Positions 1,579 to 1,850 of a stretch of 64,000 nt of DNA are shown here, one piece after another. Under the pieces are notes generated by a model that was given only the letters and a program-made list of their open reading frames with translations, ran no database searches and was not told the DNA's origin. Both the position numbers and the translations under genes were made by a program. Location of the stretch: the NCBI RefSeq assembly GCF_044324875.1, contig NZ_CP172185.1. One strand, 5' to 3'. This DNA is from Escherichia coli. GTDB lineage: Bacteria > Pseudomonadota > Gammaproteobacteria > Enterobacterales > Enterobacteriaceae. Position 1 is the first letter of the stretch; every line of letters starts with the position of its first letter.

Positions 1579-1850
1579 TTGCCTGATGCGACGCTGACGC
1601 GTCTTATCAGGCCTGCGCAGGAGTAGAACCGTAGGTCGGATAAGGCGTTTACGCCGCATCCGACAGTCGTTGCCTGATGCGACGCTGGCGCGTCTTATCA
1701 GGCCTACGCAGGGGTAGAACCGTAGGTCGGATAAGGCGTTCACGCCGCATCCGACAGTCGTTGCCTGATGCGACGCTGGCGCGTCTTATCAGGCCTGCGC
1801 AGGGGTAGAACCGTAGGTCGGATAAGGCGTTCACGCCGCATCCGACACGC
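1579..1850. repeat. REP/BIME array: three tandem 91 bp units, each with two inverted palindromic units
   Basis: Near-identical units begin at 1581, 1672 and 1763 (gcctgatgcgacgctg[a/g]cgcgtcttatcaggcct...gtaggtcggataaggcgtt[t/c]acgccgcatccgaca); lies in the dedD-cvpA intergenic region. Confidence 0.9.

Follow-up and report, generated by a model that had tools for sequence, protein, structure and literature searches.

BIME-2 elements of the E. coli REP family consist of Y-type and Z2-type palindromic units (PUs) that alternate in orientation, are joined by a short (S) head-to-head linker and a variable tail-to-tail linker (s, l or r) and are repeated in tandem (Ton-Hoang et al. 2012, PMC3333891), and variation of their copy number between strains is already known (PMC3333891, and Bachellier et al. 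1997 as cited there). The PUs themselves (Y, Z1 and Z2 in E. coli) are extragenic, imperfect palindromes of 35-40 nt that form a hairpin with a conserved internal mismatch and have an asymmetric GTAG/CTAC foot. BIME-1 elements combine a Y with a Z1 PU, occur in single copy and have a long L linker carrying an IHF site (PMC3333891). REP325, which lies between yjdM and yjdN and comprises six Z2-Y units (12 PUs), is the source of naRNA4 (Rfam RF02564); it acts as a stabiliser and partial terminator and gives rise to a ladder of hairpin-ended RNAs (bioRxiv 10.64898/2026.03.23.713779). (The stabilising effects of REPs are context dependent and often absent, according to the same preprint.) REP stabilisers of the malE-malF type and translation-coupled REPs are stable hairpins located directly 3' of a coding sequence, as are those described below, and translation has been found to be lower where a REP is closer than 16 nt to the stop codon (Liang, Rudd and Deutscher 2015, as reported in PMC12306157).

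The K-12 form of the dedD-cvpA locus is listed as a BIME-2, '<cvpA-<dedD', of 83 bp (Sutormin et al. 2019, PMC6379681, Table DS3). Topo-seq places gyrase cleavage in this one-unit orthologue, at two sites with rifampicin and ciprofloxacin and at one with microcin B17; BIME-2 elements are targets of DNA gyrase, which prefers Y over Z2 and whose BIME-2 sites are transcription independent (PMC6379681). The MG1655 RefSeq record has no repeat_region feature at the dedD-cvpA locus, and in the supplement to the REP325 preprint dedD and cvpA appear only in a differential-expression table, with nothing on the element between them. The kind of element and the locus are, in short, already catalogued: what follows concerns an ordinary palindromic repeat.

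The window (the whole stretch of 64,000 nucleotides that was analysed) carries a BIME-2 array of the E. coli REP family, three units long, between dedD and cvpA. Tandem Repeats Finder detects one array, which spans 1579-1847 (period 91, 3.0 copies, 97% matches, zero indels, score 510), and a repeat finder gives spacings of 91/91 between the three copies and detects six short inverted repeats, two per unit, in opposite orientation. As aligned, the units occupy 1579-1669, 1670-1760 and 1761-1851, head to tail. They differ at 4 positions (unit 1 versus 2), 4 positions (2 versus 3) and 6 positions (1 versus 3), and three of these differences are located at the 3' edge of unit 3, at the junction of array and flank. 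An earlier note, made from the letters of the window, had described three tandem 91-bp REP/BIME units with few substitutions, each with two inverted palindromic units, between dedD and cvpA; periodicity, unit composition (Z2 on the plus strand, Y on the minus strand) and flanking genes (as annotated in homologous E. coli loci) all bear this out, and its limits for the array, 1579-1850, are right within one base. The features of the locus are as follows.

921 to 1571, plus strand: dedD coding sequence, short 651-nt allele, from the ORF list and the annotation of homologous loci (start coordinate taken from the 651-nt CDS length in homologous loci); stop codon TAA at 1569-1571
1572 to 1579, plus strand: spacer from the dedD stop to the first PU, from sequence and hairpin register
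1580 to 1616, plus strand: Z2 PU 1; tail CCTGC; 2 mismatches to the consensus; RNA hairpin of -21.4 kcal/mol, z -6.1
1617 to 1630, plus strand: tail-to-tail linker 1, GCAGGAGTAGAACC
1631 to 1665, minus strand: Y PU 1; 3 mismatches; RNA hairpin of -18.8 kcal/mol
1666 to 1670, plus strand: head-to-head linker 1, GTCGT
1671 to 1707, plus strand: Z2 PU 2; 0 mismatches to the consensus; tail carries the exact IS621 target
1708 to 1721, plus strand: tail-to-tail linker 2, GCAGGGGTAGAACC
1722 to 1756, minus strand: Y PU 2; 2 mismatches; hairpin
1757 to 1761, plus strand: head-to-head linker 2, GTCGT
1762 to 1798, plus strand: Z2 PU 3; tail CCTGC; 1 mismatch; hairpin
1799 to 1812, plus strand: tail-to-tail linker 3
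1813 to 1847, minus strand: Y PU 3; 2 mismatches; hairpin
1852 to 1862, plus strand: right flank, TTGCACGATGC, resembling the first 11 nt of a unit, TTGCCTGATGC
1882 to 1917, plus strand: intrinsic terminator-like hairpin of 12 pairs, then a T-run (terminator scan; RNA fold -18 kcal/mol, z -6.0)
1940 to 1955, plus strand: PurR operator-like box, ACGCAAACGTTTTCTT, from sequence, upstream of cvpA-purF
1963 to 1968, plus strand: candidate -10 hexamer, TAGAAT
2012 to 2500, plus strand: cvpA coding sequence, from the ORF list and the annotation of homologous loci; ATG at 2012

Each unit reads, on the plus strand, as a Z2-type PU of 37 nt with the sequence TGCCTGATGCGACGCTGGCGCGTCTTATCAGGCCT(A/G)C, a tail-to-tail linker of 14 nt (GCAGGGGTAGAACC), an inverted Y-type PU of 35 nt with the sequence GTAGGTCGGATAAGGCGTT(C/T)ACGCCGCATCCGACA, and a short head-to-head linker of 5 nt (GTCGT). 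The 36-nt Z2 consensus is matched on the plus strand at 1581, 1672 and 1763 with 2, 0 and 1 mismatches, and the 34-nt Y consensus on the minus strand at 1631, 1722 and 1813 with 3, 2 and 2; neither consensus has a match in 100 shuffles of the window or elsewhere in its 64 kb. The Z2 PU of unit 2 is identical to the published Z2 that served as the REP query of Durrant et al. 2024 (PMC11208160). The GTAG foot is present at the tails of all three Y PUs; at the Z2 tails CTAC is found in unit 2 only and CTGC in units 1 and 3. Y PU 1 is a GGTCGG/CCGACA variant in which one stem pair is altered on both sides. All six PUs lie in extragenic sequence, bounded by the end of dedD at 1571 and the start codon of cvpA at 2012, and each of them folds singly as a hairpin with an internal loop or mismatch (-18.8 kcal/mol for Y to -21.4 kcal/mol for Z2, far beyond shuffled sequences). 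The dedD 3' region as a whole (1560-1925) likewise folds far beyond shuffled sequence (dG -183.9 kcal/mol, z -9.25). The alternation of Y and Z2 and the tandem copies, variable in number between strains, are those of a BIME-2. Relative to the K-12 cvpA-dedD BIME-2, which has the same alternating Z2 and Y PUs, the same short head-to-head linker and flanks of identical structure at the same locus, the window has three units instead of one (83-91 bp), a few substitutions, and CCTGC instead of CCTAC in the Z2 tails of units 1 and 3.

These tails also carry the natural target of an insertion element. IS621 is an IS110-family element with a bridge-RNA recombinase. Its exact target, ATCAGGCCTAC, is found at 1697-1707 in the Z2 tail of unit 2, and copies with one mismatch (CCTGC) are found at 1606-1616 and 1788-1798; the natural IS621 target in REP Z2 sequence has been described (PMC11208160). 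In E. coli B25FEP (NZ_CM177971.1, locus L012, 4858-5838) IS621 is inserted in the BIME at the tail of a Z2 unit, at ATCAGGCCT^AC. The locus is thus a documented IS621 target, with a natural bridge-RNA target and an actual insertion in one strain.

The number of units was surveyed in two systematic samples of 60 genomes (a sampling, not a census) from 5,425 complete E. coli genomes, four strains being common to both. Unit number was read from the hit span of queries made of flanking sequence only, because coverage of an n-unit query does not discriminate copy number (its pieces reuse the same subject repeat). A single unit is the prevalent state (38/60 and 39/60 genomes, ~64%), and the three-unit allele of the window is a common minority form (9/60 and 8/60, ~14%), followed by four units (6/60 and 5/60, ~9%) and by none (2/60 in each sample, ~3%). 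Larger alleles are rare: eight units occur once in the first sample (1/60, 0/60), six and seven once each in the second (0/60, 1/60 for both). Two-unit alleles, also rare, were seen only among the best hits of a search. Each sample further contains two genomes with a decayed unit that has a 23-nt internal deletion (2/60 and 2/60), one with another odd form (1/60 and 1/60: a truncated last unit in E20, an altered linker in TR01), and the IS621-interrupted allele (1/60 and 1/60), which is the same strain in both. The full alleles differ in whole 91-bp steps, in register, as the length of the dedD-cvpA spacer in representative strains attests.

167 nt, 0 units: locus L010
258 nt, 1 unit: MG1655, strain 1190, MEW
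349 nt, 2 units: TUM14771
440 nt, 3 units: the window, 19KM1831, strain 111, O157 AR-0429
531 nt, 4 units: DSM 103246, AB_24_S34
713 nt, 6 units: O55:H7 RM12579
804 nt, 7 units: GABEEC10
895 nt, 8 units: RIVM_C036204 (8.1 copies by Tandem Repeats Finder)

Copy number at the dedD-cvpA junction, which had been expected to vary between strains, does so over a range from 0 to 8 units; assembly errors could underlie some of these differences, though many complete genomes of independent origin share these sizes. The window is E. coli-like, but no genome among 5,426 complete RefSeq E. coli genomes is identical to it (best identity 99.4% for the flanks within 779-2651 and 99.2% for 40000-52000), so that its Escherichia/Shigella lineage has no exact representative there. 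MEW has the flanks closest to those of the window yet carries one unit, and the six units of O55:H7 stand against three or four in O157 strains, so unit number is not constant even within closely related lineages. Because its length is polymorphic inside clonal groups, the locus is a possible typing marker, and one at which short-read assemblies may collapse. The alleles with 0, 1, 2, 3, 4, 6, 7 and 8 units and near-identical flanks also constitute a natural series that is usable for studying effects of REP number: on 3'UTR stability, attenuation, translation termination and gyrase loading.

Certain arrays carry traces of how their number of units changed. Substitutions specific to their lineage are common to RIVM_C036204 (8 units), GABEEC10 (7) and AB_24_S34 (4), which are set apart by how many copies of identical internal units they contain, and in strain 1002W03 two units are identical and carry private substitutions. 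Neighbouring units that are identical, or nearly so, indicate that local duplication or deletion took place recently in these specific strains. Distances between units are 4.4 within and 7.9 between arrays, values inflated by a mis-registered E. albertii unit, and by a nearest-neighbour test units were not preferentially closest to others of their own array (2 same, 17 other, 12 ties); the claim is for this reason limited to specific recent duplications and does not extend to general concerted evolution. Arrays might grow and shrink through unequal recombination among units, through slippage, or through amplification by RAYT (TnpA-REP), for which models applying to BIMEs exist (Ton-Hoang et al., PMC3333891); the data fit recombination or slippage and TnpA-REP amplification alike and do not distinguish between them. 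The zero-unit allele (L010) joins the left flank exactly to the right-flank sequence and keeps the terminator. (The right flank reads TTGC(C/A)CGATGC across alleles, like the start of a unit.) Since relatives of E. coli carry PUs at the site, this allele is more likely to be a deletion than an ancestral empty site. A separate observation concerns E. coli O157:H7 TR01 (locus L135), where one unit junction has a longer and different head-to-head linker (CATCCGACATTTGCACAAGATGCCTGATG), which suggests recombination with another BIME locus or diversification of the linker.

Repeats at this site are not confined to E. coli. A cross-genus scan with the 20-mer that contains the PurR box, one genome per species, retrieved at least 120 stretches, nearly all of them Enterobacterales cvpA loci. 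E. albertii and two divergent 'E. coli' representatives have one or two Z2/Y units in the spacer between dedD and the terminator; Citrobacter species have Z-like and Y-like units of their own, or a Y-like unit alone; Salmonella enterica subsp. arizonae has one Z-like unit; and Pseudescherichia has no repeat in a 116-nt spacer. Enterobacter, Pluralibacter, Pseudocitrobacter, Buttiauxella and Serratia have an unrelated palindromic repeat, CCCTCTCCC...GGGAGAGGG, which is tandem in Pseudocitrobacter faecalis (59 nt x 7.2; L048, 1031-1456) and in Enterobacter sp. ENT03 (43 nt x 3.4; L060, 5438-5583). The palindromic repeats in this spacer differ from genus to genus, and some are amplified in tandem (further loci L017, L025, L096). 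The dedD-to-terminator spacer looks like a recurrent landing pad for repeats. A bolder proposition would make it a preferred site of landing and expansion of palindromic repeats across Enterobacteriaceae, with the polymorphism of 0-8 units in E. coli serving as a heritable, fast-mutating dial on the level of DedD or on read-through into cvpA-purF, and not being neutral; we consider this conjunction improbable.

The reading that we prefer, and hold to be very probably right, is that the array is a BIME-2 in the dedD 3'UTR, upstream of that gene's own terminator, and mainly a tolerated repeat with small effects, local or on cvpA-purF. It is regarded as a mobile repeat that is tolerated and mostly neutral because zero-unit alleles and repeat-free genera exist: the element is dispensable in E. 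coli, as the zero-unit alleles demonstrate, and Pseudescherichia does without a repeat at the site. A mainly selfish or neutral array would nonetheless be expected to have small local side effects. By analogy with REP325, hairpins transcribed together with dedD could hold up 3'-to-5' RNA decay and cause weak attenuation in the dedD 3'UTR, dependent in part on Rho, and on the same analogy stabilisation of the upstream mRNA by the dedD array is plausible. The first paired base is G1581, so that 9 nt (1572-1580) separate the dedD stop codon from the first stem; this is inside the range of less than 16 nt over which REPs reduce translation, and the stem may disturb translation termination whatever the number of units. 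In DNA, the Y units would provide a transcription-independent gyrase site. Little effect on cvpA-purF is to be expected, given the conserved terminator beyond the array; with so strong a terminator directly downstream, the array may in fact add nothing measurable. (The K-12 Term-seq supplement, PMC7815308, labels none of its 3' ends as the end of a dedD 3'UTR, which is uninformative rather than negative.)

This terminator-like hairpin, at 1882-1917, is the sole site of its kind that a terminator scan finds in 1400-2100, and is likely to be the terminator of dedD. (A small hairpin at 1860-1872 also lies downstream of the array.) The hairpin (GATGGCGTTGAATATTTTTTCAGCGCCATTTTT) is nearly invariant across Enterobacteriaceae and in the same position, and related hairpins occur in Erwiniaceae and Yersiniaceae, by direct reading genus by genus. 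As to covariation in the hairpin, RNAalifold gave no pairs on a MAFFT alignment, and in a pair count on a hand-made structure, with the families out of register, a slide of -1 scored better. Beyond the hairpin lies the box at 1940-1955, which we take to be the PurR operator of the purF operon; the 20-mer that contains it is kept in at least 120 Enterobacterales genomes, nearly always upstream of cvpA. REP325 shares with the array of the window its unit architecture, its place in the 3'UTR of a tandem gene pair and the co-transcription of its Rfam-scoring strand with the upstream gene, and has twice as many units. Unlike REP325, the array of the window has a conserved, strong intrinsic terminator downstream of it and, beyond that, a separate regulated promoter; with that terminator and a promoter of its own, cvpA-purF probably does not belong to a dedD operon.

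Given this arrangement, might the array itself work as a terminator or insulator, protecting the PurR-regulated promoter of cvpA-purF against read-through from dedD and against supercoiling? The earlier note had suggested that the array could insulate a downstream PurR-regulated promoter. A PurR-type box followed by cvpA is indeed present, consistent with a promoter of that kind, and the array is positioned between dedD and this promoter; moreover, BIMEs are known to attenuate in a partly Rho-dependent manner and have been termed topological insulators (PMC3333891; bioRxiv 10.64898/2026.03.23.713779). The sequence of the array, however, is not that of a terminator: no T-run comes after any of the six PU hairpins (TTT is the longest run of T anywhere in the array), the scan makes no terminator call inside 1579-1851, the PUs not being intrinsic terminators, and with a GC skew of +0.07 the array is not C-rich. 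The suggestion is weakened further by the separate 12-pair hairpin and T-run at 1882-1917, which stand between the array and the PurR box and are kept in genera without these repeats, and by the ~3% of genomes with zero units, whose alleles retain the terminator. For insulation of the promoter the conserved terminator offers a more economical explanation than the array does, and an insulating function of the array is accordingly judged unlikely.

The array could also be thought of as a gene for trans-acting RNAs of the naRNA4 family, which would bind HU, bridge DNA cruciforms and condense the chromosome. Two matches to the Rfam naRNA4 model (RF02564), on the dedD-sense (plus) strand at 1634-1704 and 1725-1795, score 83 and 80.8 bits against a gathering score of 59.5, and both correspond to Y-to-Z2 head-to-head pairs; the minus strand scores 55.6 and 56.4 bits, below 59.5. 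The naRNA4 of REP325 does bind HU (PMC4550694), with a Kd of ~32 nM (bioRxiv 10.64898/2026.03.23.713779). On the other hand, the Rfam model, built from a single Y-Z2 unit of REP325, is approximately one BIME-2 unit, so that any BIME-2 will score; what the two scores say again is that the units are standard BIME-2 units, oriented relative to the upstream gene like those of REP325. REP325 and naRNA4, for their part, are without measurable nucleoid compaction, and REP-REP contacts are not HU dependent (2026 preprint, bioRxiv 10.64898/2026.03.23.713779), while a copy number ranging from 0 to 8 gives no sign of constraint. A chromosome-condensing RNA gene at this locus would, in our estimation, be quite surprising.

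Still less credible is the reading of the array as a BIME-1, or RIB/RIP, element that recruits IHF. The resemblance is a general one: like these IHF-binding REP pairs, the array places REP palindromes at the 3' end of a gene and transcription unit. Its PUs match Z2, however, its head-to-head linker is 5 nt long and its units are tandem, and the features of BIME-1 (a Z1 PU, a single copy, an L linker with an IHF site) are all missing from it. The IHF consensus WATCAANNNNTTR is not found in 1570-1860, its sole three matches in the window being at 8130, 21697 and 42151. A BIME-1/IHF identity is thus refuted at the level of sequence by the absence of Z1 and of an L linker with the IHF consensus. 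Binding of 'gyrase/IHF', as the earlier note had put it, accordingly splits: gyrase is upheld by the published cleavage sites in the K-12 orthologue, and IHF falls.

That the array might be a coding minisatellite, some other class of repeat (small ORFs, a CRISPR-like array) or an artefact of assembly is scarcely conceivable: mechanical ORFs of 43-95 aa do overlap it on both strands, but 91 is not a multiple of 3, so that every unit changes the reading frame, and strains have anything from 0 to 8 of them; no spacers separate the units, whose sequence matches the REP consensus; and the same architecture is present in thousands of independent complete genomes.

Two smaller observations were made outside the array. 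dedD has a 12-nt in-frame indel (AGAACCGAAGCC) at about 1270-1290 of the window, in a short tandem repeat that encodes a PKPE-rich (Pro/Lys) linker; the CDS is 651 or 663 nt long as a result of it, the window having the short form and K-12 the long one. Elsewhere in the window, at 32561-32603, the Rfam nuoG RNA motif (RF01748) scores 50.3 bits against a gathering score of 33.
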